Of a DNA stretch of 64,000 nt, positions 3 to 24,431 are shown piece after piece. The translations under genes and the position numbers were made by a program. This stretch comes from Coriobacteriia bacterium (lineage in GTDB: Bacteria; Actinomycetota; Coriobacteriia; Coriobacteriales; QAMH01), in assembly GCA_003149935.1 (NCBI GenBank), contig QAMH01000009.1, positions 2,774 to 66,773 on the forward strand. The letters run 5' to 3'. The notes below the pieces were generated by a model. The model was not told where the DNA came from. It saw only the letters and a list, made by a program, of their open reading frames with translations, and made no database searches. Every line of letters begins with the position of its first letter. Position 1 is the stretch's first letter.

Positions 3-764
3 TACGACCACGACGGTTCGGCGAAGAGGCCGACCGTCACCGTGAAGTGCGGCGGCAAGACCCTCGCAGCGGGCACTGACTACGACGCCGTCTGGCCCTC
101 CGACGTCACAAACGTGGGCAAGAAGGAGGTCACCGTCACCGGCAAGGGCAACTACGCCGGCACGCTGAAGGCGAGCTACGAGATCGTCGCCGCCCCCAAG
201 CCGACACCAGACCCAACGCCCATACCCAAACCGAACCCCACGCCTACGCCCGACCCCGATCCCACCCCCACGCCGAATCCTGATCCGGAACCAACGCCGA
301 CCCCGGAGCCGAAACCCGATCCGGTTCCCACGCCAGAGCCGCAGCCCGAGCCGACGCCCACCAATGCCATGTTCCGCCTGTATAACCCAAACTCCGGCGA
401 GCACTTCTACAGCTCGTCGACCGTCGAATGCGACCACCTGGTCTCGCTGGGTTGGCAAGATGAGGGCACGGGGTGGATCGCTCCGGCATCTGGCAACGCG
501 GTCTACCGCCTGTACAACCCATATGCCGGCGAGCATCACTACACCCTGTCAGCCGCCGAGCGCGACATGTTGGTTTCGGTGGGCTGGAACGACGAGGGCA
601 TCGGCTGGTACTCTGATTCTGCACAAAGCATTCCCTTATACCGCATCTACAACCCCAACGAGTATGCCAACAACCATCACTACACCACGAGCGCTGCAGA
701 ACGTGACTTTCTACTGTCTATAGGCTGGCAAGACGAAGGCGTGAGTTGGTATGGAGTGGGGTAG
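3..764 (+). CDS. Cell-surface/cell-wall associated protein, C-terminal portion (5' end lies upstream of the window)
   Basis: Frame 3 is open from the window edge. It starts with an Ig-like surface-protein repeat (YDHDGSAKRPTVTVKCGGKTLAAGTDYDAVWPSDVTNVGKKEVTVTGKGNYAGT). A ~55-aa Pro/Thr/Asp/Glu linker follows (PKPTPDPTPIPKPNPTPTP...). Then come three tandem ~45-aa repeats Y(R)LYNPxxGEHxYT...E...L...GW.DEG.GW (DUF5648-like). Stop at 762-764. Confidence 0.7.
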   Translation, partial: YDHDGSAKRPTVTVKCGGKTLAAGTDYDAVWPSDVTNVGKKEVTVTGKGNYAGTLKASYEIVAAPKPTPDPTPIPKPNPTPTPDPDPTPTPNPDPEPTPTPEPKPDPVPTPEPQPEPTPTNAMFRLYNPNSGEHFYSSSTVECDHLVSLGWQDEGTGWIAPASGNAVYRLYNPYAGEHHYTLSAAERDMLVSVGWNDEGIGWYSDSAQSIPLYRIYNPNEYANNHHYTTSAAERDFLLSIGWQDEGVSWYGVG

Positions 765-1017: not shown

Positions 1018-1041
1018 GGGGAGGGGCATCTACCCCTCCCC
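1018..1041. terminator. Perfect 9-bp GC hairpin (GGGGAGGGG-catcta-CCCCTCCCC) between convergent genes
   Basis: Read directly from the sequence. It overlaps the stop codon (1030-1032) of the minus-strand 215-aa gene and follows the small plus-strand ORF. There is no strong U-tract on the plus strand and a moderate T-rich tail on the minus strand. Confidence 0.4.
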
Positions 1042-1677
1042 CGCCTCCAGCTTAGATGTTTGGCGACATTCAAATAAACATTTAGCTGACCGTTCTTCGT
1101 GTTCGTTTTCACTGACAAAGCACGCCATGCCTCCATATGCAATGGCACCTTTATCAATCGTCCTATCACATTCAGGATGCTCCTCAAGGAAAGATTGGAC
1201 CGCACTTTCAACATACGAAACAAAGCGTGTGAGATTTAGGGTAAGGTGCCGCCCTTCCTTCTCTTTATTCTCTTTGTCCTTCGTGCTGTATACCCCATAG
1301 CCGACAACCAGGGGATTCTCGAATGAGAAAACATGGAATCGGACATTGTGATAGTGAGTGAGCTTCCCAGCATCCAATGCTAATGAACCATTATGGAGTA
1401 CAGCATTTCTAATTTGATAAATGTCATTACTGCCAATGCTGTTGCATTCATCATGATAAGACGGGTCGTTTTTAATGATGGGCATCAGATAGTCGTCAGT
1501 CCATCCCATGTACTTTTCAGCATTCGTACGGCAATTACCATCAAGAGAAGAAGCGCACACATCGGGGAGAATAAGTGCGTTGTTTAGTGCTGATATATAC
1601 AATCTTGCGTCCATCGCCGCCACCATTTCAGTGCAATAATCACTGGGTTTCATGCCAATCACTTTCCACGCAGGCAT
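1030..1677 (-). CDS. Hypothetical protein with HEPN-like Rx4H motif (QIRNAVLHNG)
   Basis: 215-aa ORF in an AT-richer island. ATG 1677 is preceded by GGAGAGGGGG. The gene is divergent from the recombinase. Functional assignment rests only on the RNxxxH motif and the defence-island context. Confidence 0.6.
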   Translation of the reverse strand: MPAWKVIGMKPSDYCTEMVAAMDARLYISALNNALILPDVCASSLDGNCRTNAEKYMGWTDDYLMPIIKNDPSYHDECNSIGSNDIYQIRNAVLHNGSLALDAGKLTHYHNVRFHVFSFENPLVVGYGVYSTKDKENKEKEGRHLTLNLTRFVSYVESAVQSFLEEHPECDRTIDKGAIAYGGMACFVSENEHEERSAKCLFECRQTSKLEAGEG

Positions 1678-1753
1678 GTATACCCCCTCTCCGCTAAGCC
1701 CAAACAGCTGTCATATTCATTCTCTTCTGGCAGAGGCGTTGAAAGGAACGAAC

Positions 1754-2716
1754 GTGACAGATTTAATGATAGAGGACATCTTACAGCGCATGAGCAGGGT
1801 CCTCTCATGCACGCAGCTTAAGGTTTTGAAAGCGGAGCTTCAGGCAATGCAGAGCTCTCATGTTGCGCATAAGAACGATAGCGATTTGCTGGAACTCTTT
1901 CTCACCGCTAAAGAAGTTGAAGGATGCTCGCCGAAAACGCTTGTGTATTACGAAAAAACAATTAGCAAAATGAATGCTGCGCTCGCCAAGCCTTATACGC
2001 AACTAACCACAGATGATCTTCGCAAATATCTCAGCGACTACGAAAATGAACGAGGCTCAAGCAAGGTCACCATAGACAATATCCGACGCATCTTTTCAAG
2101 TTTTTTCTCTTGGCTCGAAGACGAAGACTACATTGTGAAAAGCCCCGCACGACGTATTCATCATGTAAAAACACCTGCTCTTGTCAAAGAAACATTAAGC
2201 GATGAAGATCTAGAGACGCTACGCGATGGATGCAGATGCGATCGTGATCTTGCCATTATCGACATGCTCGCCTCTACAGGAATGCGCGTTGGCGAACTCG
2301 TTCGCCTCGACAGGGCAGATCTCGATTTACACGAACGAGAATGTCTGGTTCTTGGAAAGGGAAATAAGCAACGTCCGGTCTACTTCGATGCGCGAACGAA
2401 ACTGCATTTGAAGAACTATCTCGCCTCACGAACTGATGATAATCCTGCTCTCTTCGTAAGTTTGAGTGGAAGACGCGAGCGTCTGAGCATTAGCGGAGTC
2501 GAACTGCGCTTGAGGCAACTAGGAAGAAGACTGCTCCCCCAACGCGTTCACCCTCACAAATTCCGGCGAACACTTGCCACGAATGCAATAGACAAGGGAA
2601 TGCCTGTCGAACAAGTGCAAAAGCTCCTCGGTCATGCAAGAATAGACACGACCATGCATTATGCAATGGTAAACCAGAATAACGTTAAAGCTTCGCATAG
2701 AAGGTATTTGGAATGA
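1754..2716 (+). CDS. Tyrosine recombinase / phage-type integrase (XerC/D-like)
   Basis: The C-terminal catalytic region is typical of the family (RVGELVRLDRADLDL..., HKFRRTLATNAIDKGMPVEQVQKLLGHARIDTTMHYAMV). The start is uncertain: GTG 1754 has AAGGAA 6 nt upstream, and alternatives are ATG 1766 or ATG 1652. Stop TGA overlaps the hsdS ATG (ATGA). Confidence 0.85.
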   Translation: MTDLMIEDILQRMSRVLSCTQLKVLKAELQAMQSSHVAHKNDSDLLELFLTAKEVEGCSPKTLVYYEKTISKMNAALAKPYTQLTTDDLRKYLSDYENERGSSKVTIDNIRRIFSSFFSWLEDEDYIVKSPARRIHHVKTPALVKETLSDEDLETLRDGCRCDRDLAIIDMLASTGMRVGELVRLDRADLDLHERECLVLGKGNKQRPVYFDARTKLHLKNYLASRTDDNPALFVSLSGRRERLSISGVELRLRQLGRRLLPQRVHPHKFRRTLATNAIDKGMPVEQVQKLLGHARIDTTMHYAMVNQNNVKASHRRYLE

Positions 2717-3951
2717 AACTTGGCGAACTGTGTATAAAGATTGGCAGCGGCGCCACCCCGCGAGGTGGCAAAAAATCCTATAGGTCATTCGGCATTCCTA
2801 TTATAAGGAGCCAAAATATTCACGATTGGACATTCAGTAGTGACGGCTTGGCTTTTTTGGACGAAACGCAGGCGAATTCTTTGTCAAATGCTGAAGTAAT
2901 GCCGGGCGATATCCTTCTCAACATAACTGGCGATTCTGTCGCGCGGTCTTGCATGGTTCCACAACACTATACCCCGGCGCGCGTGAATCAACATGTCTTG
3001 ATAATCCGGCCTAACGAAATGCTTAATCCGATATACCTTCTTTGTTTTCTGCAACATATCAAGTCATATCTGCTCAACCTCGCCTCCTCCGGTGCAACGC
3101 GTAACGCGTTGACAAAAGGCATGATTGAGAATTTAGACATCGAGCTTCCCTCATTTGAAACTCAGCAGGCTATCGCCTCTGTAATCGAGAAGTTTCTAGA
3201 TAAGATTGCCATTAACAATCAGATAAATGATTATTTGTACGAGTGTTGCACGGCAAAGATGCAAGAGATAGTCGCTGAGTCGACAGGAACTATAACCGTT
3301 GATGATTGCTGCGATGCGATTTACAGCGGCGGGACACCGTCAACAAAAAAGCCAGCATATTGGGACGGCGGTCTTCCATGGCTGTCGTCAGGCGAAACTA
3401 GATCGAGATTCATTATTGATACAGAGAAGACCATTACAGAACTTGGTGTAAATGAATCGTCTACTAAACTGGCAAAGGCTGGCGATGTTGTGATGGCCTC
3501 GGCTGGCCAGGGTTTTACCAGAGGCCAAACGTCGATGCTGTTCTTCGATACGTACGTAAATCAGTCGGTCGTTGTTATGCGGCCAAAACAATTCTATGGC
3601 GCATATTTGCTGCTTATGTTGGCTTCGCAGTACGACTCGTTGAGGGCATGGTCAGATTCGACCTCAACTAGGGGAAGCATGTCGGGTAAACTCCTTCGGC
3701 AGTTCGATATTCCATCGATTGATTCAGACCGGGCGAGAGAGCTTACAGATTCCGCAGCACCGATATTTGCCTTGATTGAAAACAACTTGCGCGAATCGAA
3801 GTCCTTAGGGCAAACCAGAGACGCATTATTACCCAAGCTCATGTCTGGCGAAATCGACGTTTCGAAAGTCGACGTCACGCAGCTAAATAATCATTTTCCC
3901 TGCATCGCCGATGCCCTTGGCGTCAGCGTAAAATCACTTGTCGAGTTCTAG
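2713..3951 (+). CDS. hsdS: Type I restriction-modification specificity subunit HsdS (intact, two TRDs)
   Basis: Two target-recognition domains, each containing ...VNQ(H/S)V(L/V)(I/V)(I/M)RP.... They are separated by a central conserved region (FETQQAIASVIEKFLDKIAINNQINDYL). A C-terminal conserved helix is present (RDALLPKLMSGEIDV). Translationally coupled to the recombinase. Confidence 0.9.
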   Translation: MKLGELCIKIGSGATPRGGKKSYRSFGIPIIRSQNIHDWTFSSDGLAFLDETQANSLSNAEVMPGDILLNITGDSVARSCMVPQHYTPARVNQHVLIIRPNEMLNPIYLLCFLQHIKSYLLNLASSGATRNALTKGMIENLDIELPSFETQQAIASVIEKFLDKIAINNQINDYLYECCTAKMQEIVAESTGTITVDDCCDAIYSGGTPSTKKPAYWDGGLPWLSSGETRSRFIIDTEKTITELGVNESSTKLAKAGDVVMASAGQGFTRGQTSMLFFDTYVNQSVVVMRPKQFYGAYLLLMLASQYDSLRAWSDSTSTRGSMSGKLLRQFDIPSIDSDRARELTDSAAPIFALIENNLRESKSLGQTRDALLPKLMSGEIDVSKVDVTQLNNHFPCIADALGVSVKSLVEF

Positions 3952-5330
3952 TCAGGCGTAGTCATCTTTCCCTCTGACACCATCCGCTGCGCGAAATCGC
4001 GCGTCCTCTTCTCCACCGCGCAATCCTCTTCCTCGCTTGACCAACGAGCTTCGGGAGGGTCGGCGAAAGTGCATGCATAATGCTCCTCGACCCATGCGGA
4101 AAAGCGCTCAATCTGCTCTTTTTCGTCCAATAATCCAGGACAGTCCACTTGAGAACCACCATGCGTCATACGCTCCCATTGCAACCGCAATGCGTCAATC
4201 CACTCATCGATCCTCTGCTCAATCTCCGACGCGCCACCATCCGAAAGCCATGACTCGAGGCGCCCCTCGACCCAAGCTTCGGTTATATGTCGCGCAGTCT
4301 CAAGACCGGGGCCATCCACGGCATAGAACTCATCGAGATGTAAGTAACGCTCGAGTCTCTCGTCAAGGGCCACTTCCTCCAGAAGTTCGAATACCGCTTG
4401 AGCGATCTCAACGAATTCCGTGCTCTGTTCCGGCGTCAGCTTCCCATCTGACATATGGGGACGATATGAAAATTCCGCAACAGCCGCTCGTAGCACCTTC
4501 GCTGTCTCGTGTACTGGTTCTAGCGACACACCCCCGCAGGCATTCCAATACAAGACCGCGAGAACGTCCTCCATGCATTTGAGGGCACTTGATGCCCATG
4601 CAAGACGAAAGGCCTCGGCGAGGGACTCGCACGCTTCGGCATCAAAAAGGCCGTCTGCGTTCTCCCCATTTTCTGTCATTTCGGCAAATGTAAAGTGGAA
4701 TGCAAGCATCTGTCCCACAGTGGGCCATCCAAATGGTTTGCTCCACGCATCGCAGAAGCGGGCGATATGAGATTTGACTAGCTCCCACGGCGCATCGGCT
4801 GGTACCTGGACAAGGCCCTCCAGCGTGTCTTGGAGCTCAGCATTGATTTTCTCGATATCGCGATCGGTATGGCTACGAGACCAGCGAATCCACTGTCTCA
4901 GATTCTTGTCCCTCTCGTAAGCATCAATGAGTCTGTCAGGACCCTCAATGCCAACGAGCTCGTCCATCAGCGATTCAGGACCCACAACTTCGAGGGCCGA
5001 GCTCAGTTCTATCTTCCTTTGGATGTGGGCATAGTCTTCCTTGAGCTCGTTTGTGCGCATTGCCACGAGCGAAGCACGTTCCGTCTCGGGAGCAGCAAGA
5101 ACTTCCTTGATTCGGTCAAGACTAAAGCCCAACTTGCGATATAGGAGGATCCCCTGGGCCCTACGAACGTCATCCATAGTGTAAAGCTTGCGATTGTTCG
5201 CAATCCCTTCGCCCGAGCGCCGTGCGACCAGAACGCCCTCCTTATCCCAGTTCTTCAGTTGAGCGGCAGTGATTCCGGTAAGTTCGTGTACCTGCGCCAC
5301 CGTAAGCAGTTTGCCATTGTCTTCGTCCAT
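3948..5330 (-). CDS. MerR-family transcriptional regulator with long C-terminal domain of unknown function
   Basis: N-terminal MerR HTH (LTVAQVHELTGITAAQLKNWDKEGVLVARRS...RKLYTMDDVRRAQGILLYRKLGFSLDRIKEVL). 460 aa. The stop overlaps the hsdS stop by 4 nt (convergent). Confidence 0.8.
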   Translation of the reverse strand: MDEDNGKLLTVAQVHELTGITAAQLKNWDKEGVLVARRSGEGIANNRKLYTMDDVRRAQGILLYRKLGFSLDRIKEVLAAPETERASLVAMRTNELKEDYAHIQRKIELSSALEVVGPESLMDELVGIEGPDRLIDAYERDKNLRQWIRWSRSHTDRDIEKINAELQDTLEGLVQVPADAPWELVKSHIARFCDAWSKPFGWPTVGQMLAFHFTFAEMTENGENADGLFDAEACESLAEAFRLAWASSALKCMEDVLAVLYWNACGGVSLEPVHETAKVLRAAVAEFSYRPHMSDGKLTPEQSTEFVEIAQAVFELLEEVALDERLERYLHLDEFYAVDGPGLETARHITEAWVEGRLESWLSDGGASEIEQRIDEWIDALRLQWERMTHGGSQVDCPGLLDEKEQIERFSAWVEEHYACTFADPPEARWSSEEEDCAVEKRTRDFAQRMVSEGKMTTPD

Positions 5331-6138: not shown

Positions 6139-6693
6139 CTACTCCTTGTCTTCGTTTTCCTTGCCGGAATTCTTGCGTGCGTCCTTGGGAAGCGGCGCCA
6201 CCATCATGTGCATGTTGCGCCCTTCCATCTTTGGCTGCTGTTCTACGACGGCGAGGTCCTTGAGGTCGTCGGCAAGCCTCTCGAGAATGGTCAGCCCCTG
6301 CTCGGGGTGGGCCATCTCGCGACCGCGGAACATGATGGTGATCTTGACCTTGTTGCCCTTGCCGAGGAAGCGAAGCACGTGACCCTTCTTGGTCTCGTAG
6401 TCGCCCGTATCGATCTTGGGGCGGAACTTCATCTCCTTGACCTCGATCTTGGTCTGGTTCTTGCGCGCCTTCTTGGCCTTGACCGCCTGCTCGTACTTGT
6501 ACTTGCCGTAATCCATAACGCGGCAAACGGGCGGATCGGCATTGGGAGCGACCTCTACCAGATCGAGACCCTGGTCTTCGGCAAAGCGTTGTGCCGCATC
6601 GTTGGCCATCTCGTACTTGGTGCCATCGACACCGATGACGAGGAGCTGCGGCGCATGAATCTCACCGTTGATCCGTGTGTCCTGAGCTGCTAT
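6139..6693 (-). CDS. infC: Translation initiation factor IF-3 (probable non-canonical AUA start)
   Basis: ...[63 protein letters not shown]... is canonical IF-3. The track start (GTG 6702) abuts the AGGAGG SD (6703-6708). The in-frame ATA at 6693 lies 9 nt from the SD. Confidence 0.9.
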
Positions 6694-6743: not shown

Positions 6744-6893
6744 CACACACAAAGACCCCCGAAGAGCGAATTGTAAGTGACCAGACAACTGAGCGCTTGC
6801 TCGTCGAAAGGTGGAAGGTAGCTTGCGCACCTTCACTTCGTAGATACGGACGCATAGTTTACACGTGCCCACGGGCACATGCAAGAAGTATTT

Positions 6894-15151: not shown

Positions 15152-15928
15152 CTATCTCAATCGGTATTCCCACTTATCGAGCCAGTTGGTTCTGACGCGT
15201 TCAGCTACTCCATTCTCAACAACTAACATGGAGCCATCCCCGACTGGTTGCATGCGACTAGTAAGTGAGAAGGTATCGCACAGCCATATATCATCTCTTT
15301 TTGACCGCAGCTTCATACATGTTTCTACAGGCGTGTGCCCCACAATTTGGTTCACTCGAGATGCAGCGTCCGCCTGCAGATCGCGTTTGTCGGCCCAAAG
15401 CGGCGATGGCAGCTCACAACCTCCCCTTGATGGACCACAAGATGCAAGTGCCCGCCAGTCGTAGTATGACCCATCGAAATACATTTCATTGATTCTTGTC
15501 GCCAAGCTCTCTGTATTGTCAGCTCTTGGCGCGTACTCGTTCCTCCATTCTTCAGTCACCCCCGCATGCGTGATGAGATGCCCATCGCAGGAAATTGCAG
15601 CGCACATTTTAAATTGGCCGAGAAGCTCACGGATACTGTCCATCGCTTCAAGATGGGTACCCGAGCATCCCTCACCAAGCAAATACTCAAAGTCGTGATT
15701 GCCCAATACAAGAATGACCTCGATATCTCTAGTCGCGGCTAACTTAATCCACCGTGCCTGAACATCAAGTGCGTCTATTACGTCTTTTGCCGTCGTATTC
15801 CACTCATCTACGTAATCACCCAGGAAGATGATTCTGCTTGGTTCAAAACATGAGACTACCTCATCCACCAAAGGGAGGACTATCCTTTGTTTGCAGTGCA
15901 TATCACCAACGATAAGAGTTTTTGACAT
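15152..15928 (-). CDS. Calcineurin-like metallophosphoesterase
   Basis: Motifs GDMHC, GDYVDEW, GNHDF, THAG and GHTP occur in canonical order. The gene sits in the AT-richer island. Confidence 0.8.
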   Translation of the reverse strand: MSKTLIVGDMHCKQRIVLPLVDEVVSCFEPSRIIFLGDYVDEWNTTAKDVIDALDVQARWIKLAATRDIEVILVLGNHDFEYLLGEGCSGTHLEAMDSIRELLGQFKMCAAISCDGHLITHAGVTEEWRNEYAPRADNTESLATRINEMYFDGSYYDWRALASCGPSRGGCELPSPLWADKRDLQADAASRVNQIVGHTPVETCMKLRSKRDDIWLCDTFSLTSRMQPVGDGSMLVVENGVAERVRTNWLDKWEYRLR

Positions 15929-15995: not shown

Positions 15996-16345
15996 GCAAC
16001 CAGATAAATGATTATTTAGCTGCGTTGCTTTCAAGCGAATTTGCTCAGAGATTTACGGCAAATACGCCAACTGCTCCACTAGGTGAAGTTCTTGCCATTT
16101 CGACGAAAACTCTAAACCCGCGCGGCTGTGCAGGTGAGATATGGGAACATTACAGTATCCCCGCCTTTGATGAGAGCCATTGGCCTGTCTTTGAGCCGGC
16201 AGAAAACATCAAAAGCAATAAGTACATTATTGACACTGATTGCATTCTGATATCTAAGCTGAATCCATCTATGAAGCGAATGTGGGTACCACCTTGTGTA
16301 TCAGACAAAGCGGTTTGTTCAACGGAATTCATTGTTTATAAGGGT
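15996..16345 (+). pseudogene. hsdS: Promoterless half-hsdS cassette (central conserved region plus most of one TRD), 3' end cut by IS256-family element
   Basis: It begins with (N)QINDYL, sharing the 17-bp CAGATAAATGATTATTT with hsdS 3220-3236, immediately after an in-frame stop. TRD-like sequence follows (LGEVLAIS...EHYSIPAFD...ILISKLNP...CSTEFIVYKG) and runs into the IS inverted repeat. Confidence 0.75.
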
Positions 16346-17790
16346 AGTGTCCCGAATGTTGGTGTAGGCACCTAGAATCTGGTTCGTATTCTAGCCCATC
16401 ATCTAGGCGGCCCTCCTTCCAATCGGATTATCGGCGACCACGACATCGATGATCCGCCTCGCATGCTCTTCGGCGGTTCCCTCGTATGCAGGCGCAGGAG
16501 CGGTCGGCTTTGACGGAGCCGTTGCCTGAGCGATCGATTCCTCCGTGAACCATCTCCTGCTCGCCCAATCCTCGTCCATCTCGGAGAACACGGCTCCCAG
16601 CATCCGGATCAGCGACTTTCTGGATGGGAATACCTGCACTACGCGGCTCCTCCTCTTGAGCTCGCGGTTGGCACGCTCCTGCACGTTGTTGGTGCGAAGG
16701 CGCCTGTGGTGGGCATAGGGAAAATCGAGATAGGCGAGGGCATCCGCCTCTGCCTCCTCCAAAAGCTCCGCCGCCTTCGGACAGAAGCTGGAGACCTCCT
16801 CGCATGCAAGATGGTAGAGCTCGCGCACGAGATCCGGGTCGCGCTCGTCGAAGACGGCGTGCAGGATGGCGAGCACAGCCGCCCTCTTTTGCCTCGTGGG
16901 TGCACTTGATGCGGCATTCCTCATCAAGTGCACGATGCAGCGTTGCCAAGCAGCTCCTGGAAAGACCTCCTCTATCGCACGCCTCAGTCCCTCATGGGCA
17001 TCGGAGGTCACGCAGGCTACACCGTCTACCCCTCTCTCGCGAAGCGACCTCAAGAATGAGATCCAGCCTGCATAGGTCTCCGTATCGATGGCATCAAGGC
17101 TCAGCAGGCGCCTATAACCATCAGCGCCGACACCAATCGCGGTAACGAGGGCGCAAGAGGAGACATGACCTTCATCACGGCATTTGATATAGGTGGCATC
17201 GAGCCAGATGTAGGGATATGCCACCTCCGAAAGATCGCGGCTCTGCAAATCGGCCACGATGTCATCCAAGGACTCGCAGATCCGCGACACTTGGCTTGAG
17301 CTCATGCGCTCGATGCCCATAGTGTGAGCTACGCGCTCGACCTTCCTTGTTGACACACCATTTGTCACCATTTCCGATATCGCCGCGATTACCGCACGAT
17401 CCACCCGTGAATAACGCACTATCAGATCCTCTGGGAAATAGCTGCCTCGCCTGAGTTTTGGGATGCGCAGGTTGATCGTGCCAACACTGGTGTGAAGCAT
17501 CCGCTCGCGATATCCGTTTCTCCGGTTGCCATCGGCGCAGGCGTCTTCTGCCTGCGCGTCCATTATCTCGTTTACAAGCGATTCGGCCATGATGCGGATG
17601 AGCTCTTGGATGTTGACCATCCCGTCATCGAATCTCGGTAAATCTTGGCAAAGTGCTTGCTGCTGCTCTAAACTGTTCATTGCGGTCATCCCTTTCATCT
17701 CGAACTTCAGCAATTCAAGATTCTAGGCGATGACCGTTTCTTATGTTTCAATCGAAACGGTTCTTACACCAACATTTGGGACATGATCCC
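16342..17790 (-). mobile_element. IS256-family insertion sequence (~1.45 kb)
   Basis: Imperfect terminal inverted repeats TGTCCC(G/A)AATGTTGGTGTA(G/A)G(C/A)ACC lie at 16348-16374 and 17764-17790. Exact outer ends are uncertain by a few bp. A single mutator-type transposase ORF is present. The flanks show no direct target duplication. Confidence 0.85.
16403..17713 (-). CDS. IS256-family (mutator-type) transposase
   Basis: ...YIWLDATYIKCRDEGHV...DGYRRLLSLDAIDTETYAGWISFLRSLRERGVDGVACVTSDAHEGLRRAIEEVFPGAAWQRCIVHLMRN... is the canonical IS256 DDE region. Confidence 0.9.
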   Translation of the reverse strand: MLKFEMKGMTAMNSLEQQQALCQDLPRFDDGMVNIQELIRIMAESLVNEIMDAQAEDACADGNRRNGYRERMLHTSVGTINLRIPKLRRGSYFPEDLIVRYSRVDRAVIAAISEMVTNGVSTRKVERVAHTMGIERMSSSQVSRICESLDDIVADLQSRDLSEVAYPYIWLDATYIKCRDEGHVSSCALVTAIGVGADGYRRLLSLDAIDTETYAGWISFLRSLRERGVDGVACVTSDAHEGLRRAIEEVFPGAAWQRCIVHLMRNAASSAPTRQKRAAVLAILHAVFDERDPDLVRELYHLACEEVSSFCPKAAELLEEAEADALAYLDFPYAHHRRLRTNNVQERANRELKRRSRVVQVFPSRKSLIRMLGAVFSEMDEDWASRRWFTEESIAQATAPSKPTAPAPAYEGTAEEHARRIIDVVVADNPIGRRAA

Positions 17791-18074
17791 TTGCTTGTCC
17801 CTTGAACAACGTGCGCATGATTATTGACGCGAAATTTACCAGCGACCATATTGGCAATAGGCTGTTTTCTAGAACGAAGGTTCTCCCCATCTTCCGCAAC
17901 CAACAAATACTCGCCTTCGTACGAGTAGTCATCTAGATAATCAACAATGCCCTGTGCTCCATAGTATGGATATATTCCAGCTCGCGTTTCGCGCTGCCTT
18001 GCAGAAAGTGGCTCTCTGAGCGAGTCGCAAATCTCAACAACATCTCCCAAGGAAATGTTACATCCCATACCCAA
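17791..18074 (-). pseudogene. hsdS: 5' fragment (~95 codons) of the hsdS gene belonging to the hsdM-hsdR operon, truncated by the IS
   Basis: The start overlaps the hsdM 3' end. The N-terminal TRD sequence ISLGDVVEICDSLREPLSA...YPYYGAQGIVDYLD...FRVNNHAHVVQG runs directly into the IS inverted repeat. Confidence 0.8.
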
Positions 18075-19566
18075 TCGCCTCCAGATTCTTCTTAATCTGT
18101 TCTTGCAAGCGATTGGATTCTTCGAAGCACTTCGCCAACTCGCCGGTCAAGCGTTCCATCTTTTCCTCGAAAGGTTCACCATCATCTTCGACATCGGCGA
18201 TGCCCACATAACGCCCGGGCGTAAGGATGTAATCCTGCTTTGCGATGTCATCGATAGTGGCTATCGCACTGAAGCCCTTTTCTTCTTCAAGCTTGCCCTC
18301 CCTGAAAGCGTCGAATGCTCTGGCGACTCTCGCGATATCCTCATCGGTAAACTCACGCAACCTGCGGCTCACCATCGTGCCCATCTCGCGGGCATCGATG
18401 AAAAGCGTCTCTCCTGGTCGAGACTTTCCCTTCGAAATGATCCAGAGACTAACGGGAATGCCCGTGCTGTAGAAAAGCTTGTCAGGCATGGCTACGATAC
18501 CCTCAACCAAATCGGCATCGACGATGGCTTTTCTGATGTCACCTTCACCGCCCGATTGACTCGATAATGAGCCATTGGCAAGCACCATTCCCATGCGGCC
18601 GCCTTGGGCAAGATGGTGAATCATGTGCTGCACCCATGCGAAGTTCGCATTTCCTTCAGGAGGGGTGCCAAATTCCCATCGCGGATCATTCGCAAGTTCC
18701 TTGCCTCCCCAATCTTTCAAATTGAACGGAGGGTTAGCCAGGATGAAGTCGAAGTCCTCGAACTTGTGAACATCATCAAAGAACGTATCTTTATTCGCTG
18801 GTCCAAGGTTCGCATCAATACCCCTGATGGCAAGGTTCATTGTCGCCATTTTCCAAGTGGTCGGATTGCTCTCCTGACCATAAATAGACAAATCGTCAAT
18901 GTTGCCTTGGTGACGCTTGACGAACTCGGCCGACTGCACGAACATCCCGCCACTTCCACAGCAAGGGTCGTATACGCGCCCATGATAGGGCTCGATAATC
19001 TCGACGAGCGTCTTCACGATACACGCCGGCGTGTAGAATTCGCCAGCGTTCTTTCCCTCGGCTTCGGCAAACTTGCTCAGGCAGTACTCATAAGTTCGAC
19101 CAAGAATATCCCTCGTATCGCCTTTCTCAGCCATTTGAACATTGGTGAAAAGGTCCACCACATCGCCAAGGCGGCGCTTATCCAGTTCTTGCCGGGCAAA
19201 GTTCTTGGGAAGGATATTCTTGAGCTTCGGATTTTCGGCTTCGATTTGGCGCATGGCCTCGTCGATGACTTTGCCAATCTCCGGCTCATGCGCAGCTGCG
19301 GCTATTTCAGACCAGCGAGCGCTTGCGGGGACATAGAAAATGTTTCTATAGCTGTATTCATCTCTGTCTTCCTCAAAACCATCGCCCTCGTCGACAAGCT
19401 CCTGATAGCGTTCGTCAAACTTGTCGGAAATGTATTTCAGGAAGATTAGACCCAAGATAACGCTTTTGTACTCCGAAGCATCTAGGTTGCCGCGAAGCTT
19501 GTCGGCCGCCTTCCAAATTTGCTCCTCGAAACCTATCTCCGCGGTATTCTCGCTCTTTTTTGCCAT
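18058..19566 (-). CDS. hsdM: Type I restriction-modification DNA methyltransferase subunit HsdM
   Basis: HsdM N-terminal domain (LWKAADKLRGNLDASEYKSVILGLIFLKYISD), SAM motif DPCCGSGGM, and catalytic NPPF (ILANPPFNLKDW). Confidence 0.95.
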   Translation of the reverse strand: MAKKSENTAEIGFEEQIWKAADKLRGNLDASEYKSVILGLIFLKYISDKFDERYQELVDEGDGFEEDRDEYSYRNIFYVPASARWSEIAAAAHEPEIGKVIDEAMRQIEAENPKLKNILPKNFARQELDKRRLGDVVDLFTNVQMAEKGDTRDILGRTYEYCLSKFAEAEGKNAGEFYTPACIVKTLVEIIEPYHGRVYDPCCGSGGMFVQSAEFVKRHQGNIDDLSIYGQESNPTTWKMATMNLAIRGIDANLGPANKDTFFDDVHKFEDFDFILANPPFNLKDWGGKELANDPRWEFGTPPEGNANFAWVQHMIHHLAQGGRMGMVLANGSLSSQSGGEGDIRKAIVDADLVEGIVAMPDKLFYSTGIPVSLWIISKGKSRPGETLFIDAREMGTMVSRRLREFTDEDIARVARAFDAFREGKLEEEKGFSAIATIDDIAKQDYILTPGRYVGIADVEDDGEPFEEKMERLTGELAKCFEESNRLQEQIKKNLEAIGYGM

Positions 19567-19574
19567 GCTCGTCC

Positions 19575-22500
19575 TTACTCGTGAATCTTGTTATCAGCCC
19601 AAAGCTCGCACTGGGCCATGACGGTCTCGAGGGCGCCTGCCGCTTCCTCAGGTGGGTACTTGTACTTTTTCAGCAGCCTCTTGATAGCACGCCTCATGCC
19701 CGCTCTCGCACTCTCCTTCTTCTGCCAGTCTATCGTCGCGCTTCTCTGCAACGTATCCGTTAACTCGCGGCTTATCGCGACAAGCTGATCGTTGTCGTAG
19801 AAATCCTTGACGGCCTGTGGTTTGGTGATGGCATCATAGAATGCCATCTCCTCATCGGTAAGTCCCAGCGCCTTGGCGTCGAATCGATCCTGCATCATCT
19901 CGCGTGCCATCTTCAGAAGCTCTTCTATGACTTCGGCATTGGTGAGCATCCCGTTTAGATAGGCGTTGAGTGTTTTTTGGAGCATGTCGCTGAATTTCTC
20001 CGACTTGACGACACTCGTGCGTTGGTATGTCTTCACTTGCTCCTTGATAAGACGCTTCAGACTTTCGAGGGCGACGTTCTTCTGTTTCATGTCTGCGATT
20101 TCGCGTAAAAACGCCTCGTCGAAAAGCGATATCTCGACTTTGTCTTTGTCGAAGAGATTGATGACACCTTCGACTTTAACCGTTTGGTTCATGATCTCGG
20201 TAACGCGCTTGTTGAACTCTGCGTAGCTCATGCCCTTGCCACCGCTGCCATTTCGGCCCTCGATACGCAGAATCTGCACGCGCAGAACAGAGAAAAAGGC
20301 AGCCTCATGCTGATCTTTCTCATCTACGAGGCTTTTGCAAAGGCTCAGGGCCTGATTCATAAGCTGGCACTGCCTGATGAAATCTTCCTTATCATACTCA
20401 CGCTTTGGATTGAGTAGCCAGTCGGTACCATCGGCAATTGCCATCGCAAGATCTGATTTGCTTCCGCTGAATATTTGTGTTTCGTACTTGAAGCCAAACA
20501 GAAGATCCCGGCAAACGCGAAGCTTCTCTTGGAACTTCGGAAGAGCCGTAAGGGCGATGTCCATATCACCGTAATTGGCCTGATCTCGATTCGTATAGTC
20601 CTTCATCGCTCGTTTGAGCGCGTTGGCAATGCCAATGTAGTCGACGACAAGACCACCCTCCTTGCCCTTGCACACACGATTAACGCGCGCAATAGCTTGC
20701 ATGAGGTTATGTCCGGACATGGGTTTGAACACGTACATCGTGGAAAGGCTCGGCACGTCAAATCCGGTAAGCCACATATCGACGACGATGGCAATCTTCA
20801 GAGGATCATCGTCGGTCTTGAACTTTCGTTCCATTTCTTTCTTGTGAGTTGTCCCGCCGCAAACTTCGAACCACTCTTCCGGGTCTTGGTTAGACATCGT
20901 CATCACGACGCCGACTTTCTCTTTCCAATTAGGCCGCAATGCAAGGATCTGATGGTATATCTTCATTGCAATAGGACGGCTATAGGCAACGATGAGTGCC
21001 TTTCCGGCCAGAATATCCTCGCGATTGTTCTCATAATGCTCAACGATGTCCTTACAGAGAGATTCGATGGTTTCCGGCGTGTCGAACAGCGCATCCAATC
21101 CGACATGGTCGCGCTTTGCCTTCTCGACGCTTACCTCATCTGCCTCGGCGGTGAACTCGTTATAGGCGTTATCAAGCTGTTTGAGCGCATCCTCATTGAG
21201 ACTTAGAGCGACAACGCGGCTTTCGTAAAACACCGGTTTGGTGGAATTGTCCTCGACGGACTGTGTCATGTCGTACACATCGATGTAGTCGCCGAATATC
21301 TCGCGAGTGTTCTTATCCTCCGTTGAGATGGGCGTGCCTGTAAAACCAATATAGGAAGCATTGGGAAGCGCCTTTCGCACGACCCTCGCCGCTCCCACGA
21401 TGATGTTTCCCTCGACATCCATGCGCTCAGTGAGTCCATATTGGCCTCGATGTGCTTCATCAACCATGACAACTACGTTTGGTCTGTCGCAAAGAGGCTC
21501 ATCACTGTCGATAAACTTCTGCATGGTGGTGAAGATAATGCCATTTGCTTCGCGCCCCTCAAGTAGCTTCTTCAGGCTCGTCTGATCCTTCGGATTCGCC
21601 TGACTCGTTGCTTGAACAGGTTGCTGGCGCAAGAACTGACTGCATCGGGAGAATTGACCATATAGTTGGTCATCAAGGTCGTTTCTGTCTGTGATAACGA
21701 CAATTGTCGGGCTATCAAGTCGTTCCTGAAGCAAGTGCGCAAGAAAGACCATGGAAAGCGATTTACCGCTCCCCTGCGTATGCCAGAAAACGCCAATCTT
21801 GCCATCACCCTCGACAGCTTCTTCGGTTCTCAAAGCCGCCTTCTTCACAGCGAAATACTGATGATAGGCAGCGAGAATTTTGATTACCTGCCTCGAAGTA
21901 TTGCTAAAGCAAATGAAGTTTTTGACAATATCCAAAAGGCGGTATTTCGACATCATGCCATCGAGCATGGTTTTCCATGTAGCCAATGCGGTTTCGGAAT
22001 AATCTCCGTCAACAGATTTCCAAGCGACGAAGCGGTCTTCGTCAGCTGTAATCGTGCCCACTCTCGTCTCTGCCATATCGCTCATCACGCAGAAGGCGTT
22101 GGGCACAAAAAGGCCCGGAATGTGTTGCATGTAGTTGCGAAGCTGCAGGTATGCCTCGGAAGCATCCGTCTCTTCGCGCGATGGGCTCTTGAGTTCGAAT
22201 ATGACAAGAGGCATTCCGTTGACGAACGCAATGATATCCGGACGCTTCTCCGAATATTCGACGTATGTCCACTGATTTACTACATGGAAGTCGTTGTTCT
22301 CAGGATCGCTGTAATCAATGAGGTAGATGATATCGTCACGTTCCTCTTTGCCATCAAAATAGCGAACCTCAACGCCGTTCTGAAGGTAATCCATGAAGGT
22401 TTCGTTTCTGTGCTGAAGCGAATCGCCCTCAACATTCAAGATCTTCAATATGGCTTCTTGAATCGCGGCCTCTGGTACACCCTTGTTGATGCGAGAAAGC

Positions 22501-22682
22501 GCTCGTGGCAGGACATCCGGAAGAAAAACGTCATCGTATTTATCACTGGTTCTACGAACGTCTGGGCCATGAAGGTAAGTATAGCCGAGCCTATCTCGTA
22601 GGTGTTCAATCACGACGTCCTCGAAGAACTCTTCGTTTATTGGCATCTTGCTGTATGCGTAGTCAACGCCCTTAATCTGCAT
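19575..22682 (-). CDS. hsdR: Type I restriction enzyme endonuclease/translocase subunit HsdR
   Basis: N-terminal PD-(D/E)xK region (PDIIAFVNGMPLVIFELK), helicase motif I (HTQGSGKS), DEAH (VVMVDEAHRGQ), and later SF2 motifs. ATG 22682 is preceded by GAGGAG. The longer track ORF starts at 22733. Confidence 0.95.
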   Translation of the reverse strand: MQIKGVDYAYSKMPINEEFFEDVVIEHLRDRLGYTYLHGPDVRRTSDKYDDVFLPDVLPRALSRINKGVPEAAIQEAILKILNVEGDSLQHRNETFMDYLQNGVEVRYFDGKEERDDIIYLIDYSDPENNDFHVVNQWTYVEYSEKRPDIIAFVNGMPLVIFELKSPSREETDASEAYLQLRNYMQHIPGLFVPNAFCVMSDMAETRVGTITADEDRFVAWKSVDGDYSETALATWKTMLDGMMSKYRLLDIVKNFICFSNTSRQVIKILAAYHQYFAVKKAALRTEEAVEGDGKIGVFWHTQGSGKSLSMVFLAHLLQERLDSPTIVVITDRNDLDDQLYGQFSRCSQFLRQQPVQATSQANPKDQTSLKKLLEGREANGIIFTTMQKFIDSDEPLCDRPNVVVMVDEAHRGQYGLTERMDVEGNIIVGAARVVRKALPNASYIGFTGTPISTEDKNTREIFGDYIDVYDMTQSVEDNSTKPVFYESRVVALSLNEDALKQLDNAYNEFTAEADEVSVEKAKRDHVGLDALFDTPETIESLCKDIVEHYENNREDILAGKALIVAYSRPIAMKIYHQILALRPNWKEKVGVVMTMSNQDPEEWFEVCGGTTHKKEMERKFKTDDDPLKIAIVVDMWLTGFDVPSLSTMYVFKPMSGHNLMQAIARVNRVCKGKEGGLVVDYIGIANALKRAMKDYTNRDQANYGDMDIALTALPKFQEKLRVCRDLLFGFKYETQIFSGSKSDLAMAIADGTDWLLNPKREYDKEDFIRQCQLMNQALSLCKSLVDEKDQHEAAFFSVLRVQILRIEGRNGSGGKGMSYAEFNKRVTEIMNQTVKVEGVINLFDKDKVEISLFDEAFLREIADMKQKNVALESLKRLIKEQVKTYQRTSVVKSEKFSDMLQKTLNAYLNGMLTNAEVIEELLKMAREMMQDRFDAKALGLTDEEMAFYDAITKPQAVKDFYDNDQLVAISRELTDTLQRSATIDWQKKESARAGMRRAIKRLLKKYKYPPEEAAGALETVMAQCELWADNKIHE

Positions 22683-23068
22683 GGTGCTCCTCACGCAACA
22701 ATCCGCTCGAAACAAAGGCGCGTTACAGCGCATTATCGTAATCCGAGAAAATGCTGATATCTTGCGATTATACTTCGTGATTCTACTGCTAGCCGATACG
22801 AACGACTGGTATCAAACTCCAACGCGCGAATGGTGCACTCCGACTACATGCTATGCGACAGGAATAGCCTGCTCCGATGCAGAGAAATGACCGATTGAAA
22901 ATTGCAAATCAGCCCGTATGGACATACGGATGCATCTTCAGTTCTATTAATATACGAATTGGCATGAACTGGATTGCCGCAGGCACTCGAAAGACTGCTG
23001 GTAAAACGCGCGAAACGCAGTCAATATACAGGATAGACGTGCCCTCATCCTTGAATGGTGAATGGATT

Positions 23069-23458
23069 ATGGTAAATCCGAAAGGGAAAATAATTATCGA
23101 ACCAGGGCTGAATATCTGGCCGCACGAACTCAAAACAGCAGAAGCACTAGCCGCCGCTGGTTATACCGTCGAGTTTATTCGTAAAAGCGATGTCGAATAT
23201 GAAAAGACAGCAGACGTGCTAATTGATGGCGTGCAGTGGGAAATGAAAGCGCCTAAATCAGGAAAGACAGATATGATTTTAAAGAACTTGCGTCGTGCGC
23301 TCCATCAATCCTGCTGTGTTGTTTTTGATGCTCGCCGCATGAAGAATTTGCCTAACCAGATAATAGAGCGTGAAGTACGCGCACGCGCCCATGACTTGAA
23401 ATCACTGAGGCATTTAATCTATATCAATCGCTATGGGGAAGTTGTGACAATCAGATAA
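23069..23458 (+). CDS. Small protein with PD-(D/E)xK-like signature (possible restriction-endonuclease-fold nuclease/toxin domain)
   Basis: HELKTAEALAAAGYTVEFIRKS....KTADVLIDGVQWEMKAPKSGK gives the D...E-x-K arrangement. The track ORF begins at 22877, but ATG 23069 (MVNPKGK...) fits the compact domain better. The function is an inference only. Confidence 0.5.
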   Translation: MVNPKGKIIIEPGLNIWPHELKTAEALAAAGYTVEFIRKSDVEYEKTADVLIDGVQWEMKAPKSGKTDMILKNLRRALHQSCCVVFDARRMKNLPNQIIEREVRARAHDLKSLRHLIYINRYGEVVTIR

Positions 23459-23600: not shown

Positions 23601-24431
23601 TTACTTCTCCTCACGGCGATACACGCTGTCGAGCGTTTGGTTCTGATCGTTTACCCACTCAATCCAGCCATTCTGACTGCCCCCAAGCACAAAGACAGCA
23701 GCGGCGCTTGGACTCGGGAACTCATAGTCCTCCTCGTGCGTGACGACTTCGTCCGCATTGCCGAAAATCTGCTTGCGTTTCTCATCCACACCGGTATTTT
23801 TCGTTATCGCATGGGTAAGGTCAATCTGGGAACCAGCTAGGACTGTAAACCGACCCGAGTTCTTGTCATATTTACCGATGCCCTTGATGCCATTGCGTCG
23901 TGTATGGAATACCGGGCTAATCTCAGGACCAGCATAAACCCGATCAAGGTCGAGGCCCAAAGCGGCCATCCGGAACAACACGTCATCGTGCAATCTCTCG
24001 ATGTAGTCTTCGGAATATGGGCTCACGTAAGGCTTGGGAACTTCCGAATTCACCGAGCTGTATGAACCATGCTCAAGAATATATGCAATCGCCTTTGCTT
24101 CGAGCCCGTTGAGAGCATCCTGGCTGAGGTTCTGGTTATCTGTCAGGAACATGACGGCTTTGTTCCAGAAGTCTTTCTTCGCCTTATGGTCATCAAGACG
24201 TCTGATGCCCTGCACGGTCTGTCCGGCATACACGCTACTAATCACTCCATGATCTTCATCAAGCAGATAGTAGATGCCGCGCGAGGGAATGTCGGGAAGT
24301 CGCTTGGCTTCAGGGAGCATAGCTCGCGGTATGACAATGGTCATAAGTGATTCGCCCTCGACGCGGCAGATCCGAATGCCCTCCGGATCACTGTTAATGA
24401 GCTGCATGATTATAGTTTTGAGCTTTATCAC
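23601..24431 (-). CDS. GIY-YIG nuclease domain protein with C-terminal DUF4357-like domain
   Basis: GIYYLLDEDHGVISSVYAGQTVQGIRRLDDHKAKKDFW...LEAKAI is GIY-YIG. The C-terminus is FPSPSAAAVFVLGGSQNGWIEW (DUF4357-like). AT-richer sequence. Confidence 0.8.
   Translation of the reverse strand: MIKLKTIIMQLINSDPEGIRICRVEGESLMTIVIPRAMLPEAKRLPDIPSRGIYYLLDEDHGVISSVYAGQTVQGIRRLDDHKAKKDFWNKAVMFLTDNQNLSQDALNGLEAKAIAYILEHGSYSSVNSEVPKPYVSPYSEDYIERLHDDVLFRMAALGLDLDRVYAGPEISPVFHTRRNGIKGIGKYDKNSGRFTVLAGSQIDLTHAITKNTGVDEKRKQIFGNADEVVTHEEDYEFPSPSAAAVFVLGGSQNGWIEWVNDQNQTLDSVYRREEK

Follow-up and report, generated by a model that had tools for sequence, protein, structure and literature searches.

Does a Type I restriction-modification (RM) operon retain a specificity subunit once its hsdS gene has been cut by an insertion sequence (IS), and by which events is such a gene left as two pieces facing each other across the element? 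This question is raised by positions 15996-22682 of a 64,000-nucleotide stretch of DNA from a Coriobacteriia bacterium (contig QAMH01000009.1, positions 2,774 to 66,773 of the forward strand), here called the window, in whose coordinates all features are given unless another sequence is named. In this region hsdR and hsdM are followed by a truncated hsdS gene, an IS256-family element and a second hsdS fragment in the opposite orientation. The reading favoured here, which we regard as having a good probability, is that the region represents the decayed, hsdM-proximal expression site of a recombinase-driven specificity shufflon, that a module carrying the recombinase and an hsdS gene has been relocated, and that the HsdS encoded by this distal module serves the RM operon in trans.

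The hsdR gene (19575-22682, minus strand) specifies an intact protein of 1035 amino acids (aa) with the Pfam domains HSDR_N, SWI2_SNF2, T1R_D3-like and T1RH-like_C, thus presenting the nuclease N-domain, SF2 motor and C-terminal domain of a Type I HsdR. It scores 558 bits against TIGR00348 in an NCBIfam profile search, above the cut-off of that model, and shows 95% identity along the entire protein to HsdR from L004, a relative that lacks the IS. The intact hsdM gene (18058-19566, minus strand) encodes a 502-aa gamma-class N6-adenine methyltransferase with Pfam HsdM_N and N6_Mtase domains, whose 176 bits against TIGR00497, being below the equivalog cut-off of 243, represent a match at the family level only. 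The hsdS gene that overlaps the hsdM stop codon (start at 18074 or 18068) is represented by its first 95 codons only (17789-18074, minus strand), which are collinear with positions 5942-6227 of L004 and match Pfam Methylase_S (E=8e-4) across profile positions 8-90 of 168. Its reading frame meets the IS at 17789/17788 and ends 13 codons later at 17748; intact relatives of this first target recognition domain (TRD), designated TRD1a and forming what is here termed expression site 1, run on to ...NNQINDYLAA. With the local hsdS cut at codon 95, no two-domain HsdS is encoded together with hsdM. A preceding interpretation of this DNA (the sequence-only reading) had described hsdR and hsdM as intact and the hsdM-overlapping hsdS as ending after ~95 codons at the IS, and both descriptions are upheld, the former by complete domain sets and the end-to-end alignment of HsdR to L004, the latter by a match to relatives that lasts for 95 codons.

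The interrupting element (16343-17788, minus strand; 1446 bp) encodes a Mutator-family DDE transposase (16403-17680/17713) recognized by Pfam Transposase_mut (PF00872, E=1e-104) and by the IS256-family model NF033543 (332 bits, cut-off 150). Its ends are defined by ten other copies, each at least 99.8% identical, which align over exactly 16343-17788 and whose flanks diverge at the next base; the family had been correctly named before, but the ends then given (16342 and 17790) were 1-2 bases off. In its type of transposase, its size of ~1.4 kb and its imperfect terminal inverted repeats of ~26-30 nt (16343-16372 and 17759-17788; 25 nt with 88% complementarity in an inverted-repeat search), the element resembles the IS256 family, as does the clean and perfect 8-bp duplication, GTCGGCTC, that surrounds its copy in L022. 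It is unlike the norm of that family in that it lacks a duplication and bridges non-adjacent sequences, which is a signature of secondary deletion or recombination: the flanks read ..TTTATAAG before and CCTTGCTTG.. after the IS or, over a longer distance, ..CATTGTTTATAAG and CCTTGCTTGTCCC.., with no direct repeat in common. The absence of a direct target-site duplication reported in the sequence-only reading therefore holds after the exact ends had been fixed by the ten copies. A target-site duplication is also lacking in other metagenome copies, whose flanks may be chimeric joins; this is uninformative because short-read assemblies can join the flanks of different copies through a 1.4-kb repeat, and the identical transposase is present on many metagenome contigs (indexed in 76 blocks).

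On the other side of the IS, the plus strand carries the fragment of a silent cassette, TRD2a (16018-16342), which is cut by the IS after ...EFIVYK. A Pfam search with the plus-strand fragment (16025-16375) gave no match; a homology search returned 231 proteins of 50-75% identity, several of which are named S subunit and the majority of which are ~199-aa single-domain HsdS modules. The fragment is, by homology, a real HsdS recognition domain. It opens with ..NQINDYLAALLSSEFAQRF, corresponding to the distal part of the HsdS central conserved region from the recombination core (see below) onward, and according to alignment it misses ~95 residues, including the C-terminal conserved region ..LRDALLPKLMSGEIDV... 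An opposite-strand hsdS segment cut inside a TRD had been proposed previously, and correctly so, although the alignment indicates that it holds only the distal half of the central conserved region and the first ~55% of the recognition domain, and not 'most' of the latter. The fragment matches L004 6412-6800 (window 15997-16342) in the opposite relative orientation. Simple insertion of the IS into one contiguous hsdS is ruled out by the lack of a duplication, by the mapping of the two flanks to L004 positions 6227 and 6800, and by their opposite orientation; the earlier statement that the IS did not simply insert is thus correct, the flanks being non-contiguous pieces of hsdS.

The layout from which these pieces derive can be seen in L004, part of a 2.05-Mb contig which was found by a look-up of the metallophosphoesterase protein encoded beside the fragment, this protein serving as the anchor for syntenic relatives. 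L004 has the same gene order: rsmI, hsdR, hsdM, hsdS (TRD1a) and its continuation (TRD2a), then a 177-aa hsdS module on the other strand (TRD1b), a tyrosine recombinase gene which overlaps TRD1b by 4 bp, a 199-aa open reading frame (ORF), a 281-aa hsdS module on the other strand (TRD2b), the metallophosphoesterase gene and metG. Window positions 19600-17789 are collinear with L004 4416-6227 at 94% identity, and positions 16018-15129 correspond to L004 9911-10800 at 100% identity. A second relative, L005, is 99.9-100% identical to L004 but for the lack of 2.8 kb between two direct recombination sites (R1 and R3, see below), and is without the recombinase. The alignment to IS-free relatives that had been suggested in the sequence-only reading thus exposes, through the synteny of L004 and L005, the layout of an hsdS shufflon. 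As regards the quality of these two relatives, L004 6440-6800 (TRD2a) shows, when aligned to the window, numerous insertions of 1-2 bases (87% identity, 43 gap columns) between clean flanks, probably reflecting a noisy long-read consensus over a heterogeneous invertible segment or decay of the cassette, while the hsdR of L005 (4173-7293) is called as two ORFs of 571 and 486 aa and is possibly frameshifted. An IS-free allele with identical HsdM was sought and none was found, the identical HsdM protein occurring in five metagenome contigs of which all five break at the IS. The search for a closer IS-free allele through the TRD1a fragment yielded a 99%-identical protein (P0121) only on loci whose hsdM DNA is 88-90% identical, and the one-genome-per-species collection contained no locus syntenic with the housekeeping flanks of the window, the top HsdM match being 88% (a metagenome-assembled genome, MAG, of Parvibacter).

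All junctions in these loci have a 12-bp core in common, AAATGATTATTT, which lies within the codons I-N-D-Y-L of the HsdS central conserved region and on its other strand encodes a C-terminal tail ..QLNNH. L004 contains four such sites, R1(+), R2(-), R3(+) and R4(-), each with its own left and right flank: R1 joins TRD1a to the start of TRD2a, R2 joins TRD1b to the antisense end of TRD2a, R3 joins the end of the 199-aa ORF to the antisense end of TRD2b, and R4 joins the metallophosphoesterase side to the start of TRD2b. An acceptor module that meets the antisense end of a cassette reads ..NDYLAA-stop. In the window the core is present four times (one copy with one mismatch), compared to 0.11 occurrences expected by chance. 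Among 80 loci fetched with HsdM, one genome per species, 45 loci from across genera contain the core, which is exactly conserved whereas its flanks vary freely; the +,-,+,- pattern around a homologous recombinase (52-70% identity) is found in 15 loci, and ~8 long loci have just one +,- pair, its sites ~650 bp from each other, and lack a recombinase within 10 kb. The properties of a shufflon are therefore present, i.e. multiple hsdS genes of mixed orientation with repeats inside hsdS, and arrangements that are exchanged exactly at these repeats, the latter as judged from hybrid sites among the window, L004, L005 and a further locus, L107, and from contigs L007 and L008 ending at the core. A recombinase is encoded within the locus in L004 and in about half of the related loci, and not in that of the window, where it lies 12-14 kb from the RM operon. 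In the proposed mechanism, the Xer-like tyrosine recombinase would exchange DNA at the core AAATGATTATTT, with TRD2 cassettes of ~650 bp flanked by inverted cores, such that an acceptor module (TRD1 plus core) joined to the start of a cassette would produce a full-length HsdS (ON), and joined to an antisense cassette end would produce the ..NDYLAA-stop form (OFF). L004 would accordingly combine two acceptors, TRD1a behind hsdM and TRD1b behind the recombinase, with two TRD2 cassettes.

The counterpart of the recombinase part of L004 was located by comparing the hsdS modules of L004 to the ORFs of the window in all six frames, a search that revealed no hsdS in the window beyond those described here. 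It forms a 2.8-kb recombinase-hsdS module (1084-3884), which has a merR-like gene on one side and a surface-protein gene on the other and is separated from the RM operon by ~12-14 kb, and window 1072-3236 corresponds to L004 9284-7120 at 96.5% identity. The module encodes a tyrosine site-specific recombinase (1652-2716, plus strand; 354 aa, or 346 aa from a start at 1676) with Pfam Phage_integrase and SAM-like N domains and 233 bits against NF040815 (cut-off 220), an NCBIfam model of Xer-like/integron-integrase type. Its stop codon is overlapped (ATGA) by the start of an intact, translationally coupled hsdS gene (2713-3951, plus strand), whose 412-aa product consists of TRD1b, the core, a further cassette designated TRD2c and the C-terminal conserved region; it contains two Methylase_S stretches, matches PADLOC Specificity_I (E=4e-88), and is 99% identical to the 177-aa acceptor module of L004 over residues 1-175 (TRD1b). 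Its last 18 codons, beyond the conserved C-terminal helix, derive from the flank of the integration site. Divergent from the recombinase gene is a conserved 215-aa ORF of unknown function (1030-1677, minus strand), the counterpart of the 199-aa ORF at L004 8679-9278, without a match in Pfam, NCBIfam or PADLOC; its C-terminus crosses site Wc, and its length hence varies with the arrangement. The sequence-only reading had named the discovery of another intact hsdS in cis as grounds for abandoning its interpretation; the two-domain gene at 2713-3951 is such an hsdS.

The module is bounded by core sites in direct orientation. At site Wc (attR-like; 1072-1083, minus strand) the L004 R3 left flank, a variant core AAATGTTTATTT and the right flank of an empty site (surface-protein side) are joined, and at site Wd (attL-like; 3885-3896, minus strand) the left flank of the empty site (merR side), the core and the L004 R3 right flank. 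A third site, Wa (3225-3236, plus strand), has its core inside the intact hsdS, at codons I-N-D-Y-L, and is inverted relative to Wd. The empty site itself is found in another sample: L107 is 99.9-100% identical to both flanks of the window, lacks exactly 1084-3884, and presents as an uninterrupted target the merR-side flank, AAATGTTTATTT and the surface-protein-side flank. In terms of left and right flanks, Wc corresponds to L3/rB, Wd to LB/r3 and the empty site to LB/rB (B denoting the flanks of the empty site), and therefore the comparison of L107 with the window displays the attB/attL/attR relationship to be expected if a circle had integrated by way of an intact R3. Such a circle is predicted to contain R3, TRD2c, an L2/TRD2-start junction, TRD1b, the recombinase gene and ORF215, and, as far as the layouts can be compared, a four-site shufflon that recombines between two direct cores would release exactly this circle. 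A recombinase-carrying segment bounded by direct repeats is thus seen in both occupied and empty states, in window and L107 as well as in L004 and L005, and neither pair represents an assembly jump, because the shared repeats are far shorter than assembly k-mers. The arrangement of the window is moreover reproduced independently by L104, whose 18.9 kb reach from the metallophosphoesterase gene as far as that for the surface protein, and by L105. An exact-protein look-up of the recombinase for a second context returned only the merR-side context. The gene flanking the module on the Wc side (42-764, plus strand, extending past the start of the window) is present in L104 (14567-17626) and encodes ~1019 aa with a proline/threonine-rich linker and a C-terminal DUF5648 (E=2e-51), presumably a surface protein.

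Returning to the RM operon, the orientation of TRD2a is explained by site Wb (16006-16017, plus strand), where the core AAATGATTATTT is flanked on the left by the sequence of L004 R4 (metallophosphoesterase side) and on the right by that of L004 R1 (start of TRD2a), i.e. L4/r1. Wb being an R4-left/R1-right hybrid, its flanks show that the TRD2a cassette was turned to face the operon by site-specific inversion at the core and not by the IS. IS-mediated inversion as the cause of the opposite orientation is ruled out by the same hybrid, and TRD2a, the sole cassette to remain beside the RM operon, has the inverted (OFF) orientation. Together with its immediate flanks (16006-16027) the site reads CAGATAAATGATTATTTAGCTG, a near-perfect 22-nt palindrome with 9 of 11 pairs; its weak asymmetry may explain how the same core can serve both inversion and excision/integration. 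The state preceding the IS is most simply reconstructed as hsdM, TRD1a, an L1/r2 site, TRD2a in inverted orientation, an L4/r1 site and the metallophosphoesterase gene, which constitutes an OFF two-site inverton. Within this reconstruction the IS links the equivalent of L004 position 6227 with that of position 6800 in the inverted cassette, and ~0.5 kb of DNA is missing: ~205 bp with the remainder of TRD1a and the core, and ~319 bp with the 3' part of TRD2a. By this comparison, one recombination site was among the at least ~0.5 kb of DNA that the IS replaced. A deletion associated with the IS must have taken place, and either an IS-adjacent deletion or recombination between two IS copies of the same orientation would give the observed structure. 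Expression site 1 can no longer be restored by recombination because one core and portions of the two modules were lost in the IS event. The IS-mediated deletion or rearrangement of a shufflon with an active and an inverted silent hsdS, as envisaged in the sequence-only reading, is consequently confirmed as regards the shufflon origin, given the L004 layout, and the need for a deletion, but the opposite orientation was not made by the IS, and the deletion need have comprised only ~0.5 kb and not a whole shufflon.

The sequence of events that we favour would thus begin with movement of the module as a circle, by core-mediated excision and integration and most simply out of the RM locus. The IS event would then have removed the ~0.5 kb comprising the rest of TRD1a, a recombination site and the 3' part of TRD2a, leaving expression site 1 permanently dead. 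HsdR and HsdM would be served in trans by the distal 412-aa HsdS, with the repertoire reduced to one specificity, and this remaining specificity could toggle between ON and OFF by Wa-Wd inversion around TRD2c, the OFF product being a 176-aa protein ending in ..NDYLAA-stop. The distal HsdS is a likely subunit for the HsdM and HsdR of the window because TRD1a and TRD1b share TRD2 cassettes in L004, so that both must be expected to serve the same HsdM. Going by these shared cassettes, the RM operon probably retains one specificity, supplied in trans; the earlier notion of an operon without a functional local specificity subunit applies to its immediate neighbourhood, yet not to the window, which contains the intact distal hsdS.

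The Wb hybrid and the IS junctions can also be accommodated by a different history, in which a complete shufflon with its own recombinase stood at the RM locus, inverted between R1 and R4, and lost ~3.3 kb to the IS event; the distal module would then be a second copy unrelated to it, and the operon would in effect have no specificity subunit. R1xR4 inversion of a full four-site shufflon would produce Wb equally well, the junctions at L004-equivalent positions 6227 and 6800 fit a single contiguous 3.3-kb deletion in that state, and genomes with two loci of this RM family do exist (L057 and L058, on one contig). We nevertheless consider this history unlikely, as it needs an extra duplication of the module, whereas the distal module is exactly the circle predicted from a four-site locus (L2/TRD2-start junction plus intact R3) and holds the same acceptor, TRD1b, at 99% identity; nor does the absence of a specificity subunit follow, since an intact, family-matched hsdS is still in the window. 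Alternatively, the RM locus may always have been a simple two-site inverton without an integrase, the module having come in from a different genome or a different locus and settled at the pseudo-site on the merR side. Loci with two sites and no integrase are frequent in this family, the empty site is found in a sister strain, and the island and module are more alike between L004 and the window than is the core genome, which suggests horizontal movement. We judge this origin improbable too: L004 has the module inside its RM locus and its R4 flank and metallophosphoesterase gene are 100% identical to those of the window, making a local origin the shorter path, and the anatomy and function described here are unchanged by it. 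An assembly artefact, with two IS copies around a further hsdS collapsed into one or with the IS joining two unlinked contig ends, is very hard to credit even though the IS is multi-copy (76 blocks with an identical transposase), the short-read contigs of the same strain all break at it and most other assembled copies are without a duplication, consistent with chimeric joins, as each junction is reproduced independently (by L001, which reaches 141 bp into the IS, and by L006 and L016, with the whole IS and the other side), both flanks belong to the same locus by synteny with L004, and no contig with the missing TRD1a/TRD2a parts was found from the lineage of the window.

Several considerations weigh against a decayed expression site served by a relocated module. 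L004 is not a close relative of the window (identity is 79-93% in core genes, compared to 94-100% in the island and 96.5% in the module), so that a four-site ancestor in the lineage of the window was deduced and not observed. The module may have left the RM locus, it may have come from elsewhere, or the empty site may be a post-excision product. The window itself is the only sequence that spans the whole IS with both junctions. The circle, inversion within a population and methylation are predictions from the sequence, and the pairing of the distal HsdS with HsdM is predicted from shared conserved regions and the cassettes shared in L004. The Logan contig L105 runs unbranched through Wa, Wd and Wc, suggesting little heterogeneity at the module in that sample. 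The foreign C-terminal tail of 18 residues could, furthermore, impair the distal HsdS.

A number of further observations concern the state of related loci. In many species (P0121-P0142; L033, L039, L042, L056, L057, L032 and L070) the hsdM-linked hsdS is an ORF of ~164-166 aa that ends in ..N(D/G)YLAA-stop, consisting of one recognition domain and the core and facing the antisense end of a convergent cassette; on several long contigs with this form a recombinase is lacking within 10 kb. This would mean either that assemblies mostly capture the OFF or half-gene state or that HsdS subunits split into halves are functional. One Eggerthellaceae MAG contig (CALULI010000006.1) carries two loci of the RM family ~155 kb apart, L057 and L058, one with two sites and no recombinase and the other with four sites and a recombinase, which is consistent with a recombinase acting in trans. 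Four contigs from other samples, L007, L008 (position 1-89), L009 and L011, contain an identical metallophosphoesterase gene and end either at the R4 core or shortly beyond it; such ends would arise from branches in the assembly graph if several arrangements of the shufflon coexist in these samples. In L021 (ERZ28616345) the same IS (3092-4537) directly follows the rsmI-DUF4357 genes (~90% identical to the window), with unrelated sequence beyond it in place of the toxin-domain gene and hsdR, and this contig may represent an IS-associated loss of the whole RM operon.

The RM operon is situated in an island of low GC content (15.1-24.4 kb; ~50% compared to ~60% around it), with metG and the metallophosphoesterase gene on one side and rsmI on the other. 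The metallophosphoesterase gene (15152-15928, minus strand; Pfam Metallophos) marks the edge of the island. Adjoining hsdR is a gene for a 193-aa protein with a CdiA_C toxin-like domain (22877-23458, plus strand), and the same island encodes a DUF4357 protein (23601-24431, minus strand) that matches the PADLOC candidate defence family PDC-S14 (E=4e-53). The whole stretch of 15.1-24.4 kb looks like a defence island.

Where an IS has broken the hsdS beside intact hsdR and hsdM, annotation usually records the RM system as dead or orphaned; in the present case, under the favoured reading, the specificity gene and the switch recombinase have moved and are not lost, and consideration of the operon alone would lead to wrong predictions of the methylome, of the barrier to phages and plasmids, and of a phase-variable regulon. 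The natural pairs of occupied and empty sites suggest that the recombinase-hsdS unit acts as a small mobile element. More tentatively, at somewhat below even chances, the unit composed of ORF215, recombinase, TRD1 acceptor and TRD2 cassette may be an autonomous integrative minicircle with the core AAATGATTATTT as its attachment site, this core being exactly conserved in the central conserved region of the hsdS family in Coriobacteriia, Bifidobacterium and Bacteroidales. If so, a four-site shufflon would equal a two-site inverton plus an integrated circle, and the circle would hop out, land in chromosomal pseudo-sites as in the window, and spread specificity switching horizontally.

Among known systems, the tvr locus (SpnIV) of Streptococcus pneumoniae undergoes TvrR-driven excision and reintegration of a circle that carries the recombinase gene and segments of hsdS recognition domains, with locked or decayed variants occurring between strains (Kwun et al. 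2018, PMC6265443). The window resembles tvr in its Type I RM locus, its tyrosine recombinase and, as read here from the layout, a putative circle of recombinase and hsdS formed at short repeats. It differs in that tvr reintegrates within its locus at direct repeats, whereas a nearly palindromic 12-bp core is used here in both orientations, and in that the module is found at an ectopic pseudo-site 12 kb away across essential genes, splitting the locus. A catalogue of 'epigenetic invertons' includes loci with clade-2 (TvrR-like) invertases, e.g. in Bifidobacterium longum F8, in which inversions are so arranged as to mostly truncate HsdS (ON/OFF); it considers that recombinases may both invert and excise and that hsdS loci without an integrase may be served by recombinases in trans, and it leaves clade-2 loci, a family common in Actinobacteria and Bacteroidetes, uncharacterised for their 'peculiar' arrangement (Huang et al. 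2020, PMC7672463). The window and L004 share with these the multiple hsdS genes of mixed orientation around a tyrosine recombinase and the many arrangements that truncate HsdS, a likeness of function. The window departs from them in the ectopic landing site, by which the locus is split over 12 kb of essential genes, and in the later damage by an IS256-family element to the site linked to hsdM. To that catalogue the present analysis adds the 12-bp core, the logic of two acceptors and two cassettes, and pairs of loci with and without the module. It thereby offers a precise and testable core at which a large class of hsdS switches in gut actinobacteria, the clade-2 loci called 'peculiar' in PMC7672463, would recombine. 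In Mycoplasma pulmonis, to the extent that the system is cited in PMC7672463, the recombinase HvsR acts on hsdS inversion sites at distant chromosomal loci; on that account one recombinase and distant hsdS loci are common to M. pulmonis and the window, while the recombinase clade and the sites are different and the M. pulmonis loci are complete, and not one locus that has been split. An hsdS killed by an IS is by itself ordinary, and what is new compared with these systems is the conserved 12-bp core, the design of two acceptors and two cassettes, and a relocated module with an empty-site counterpart.

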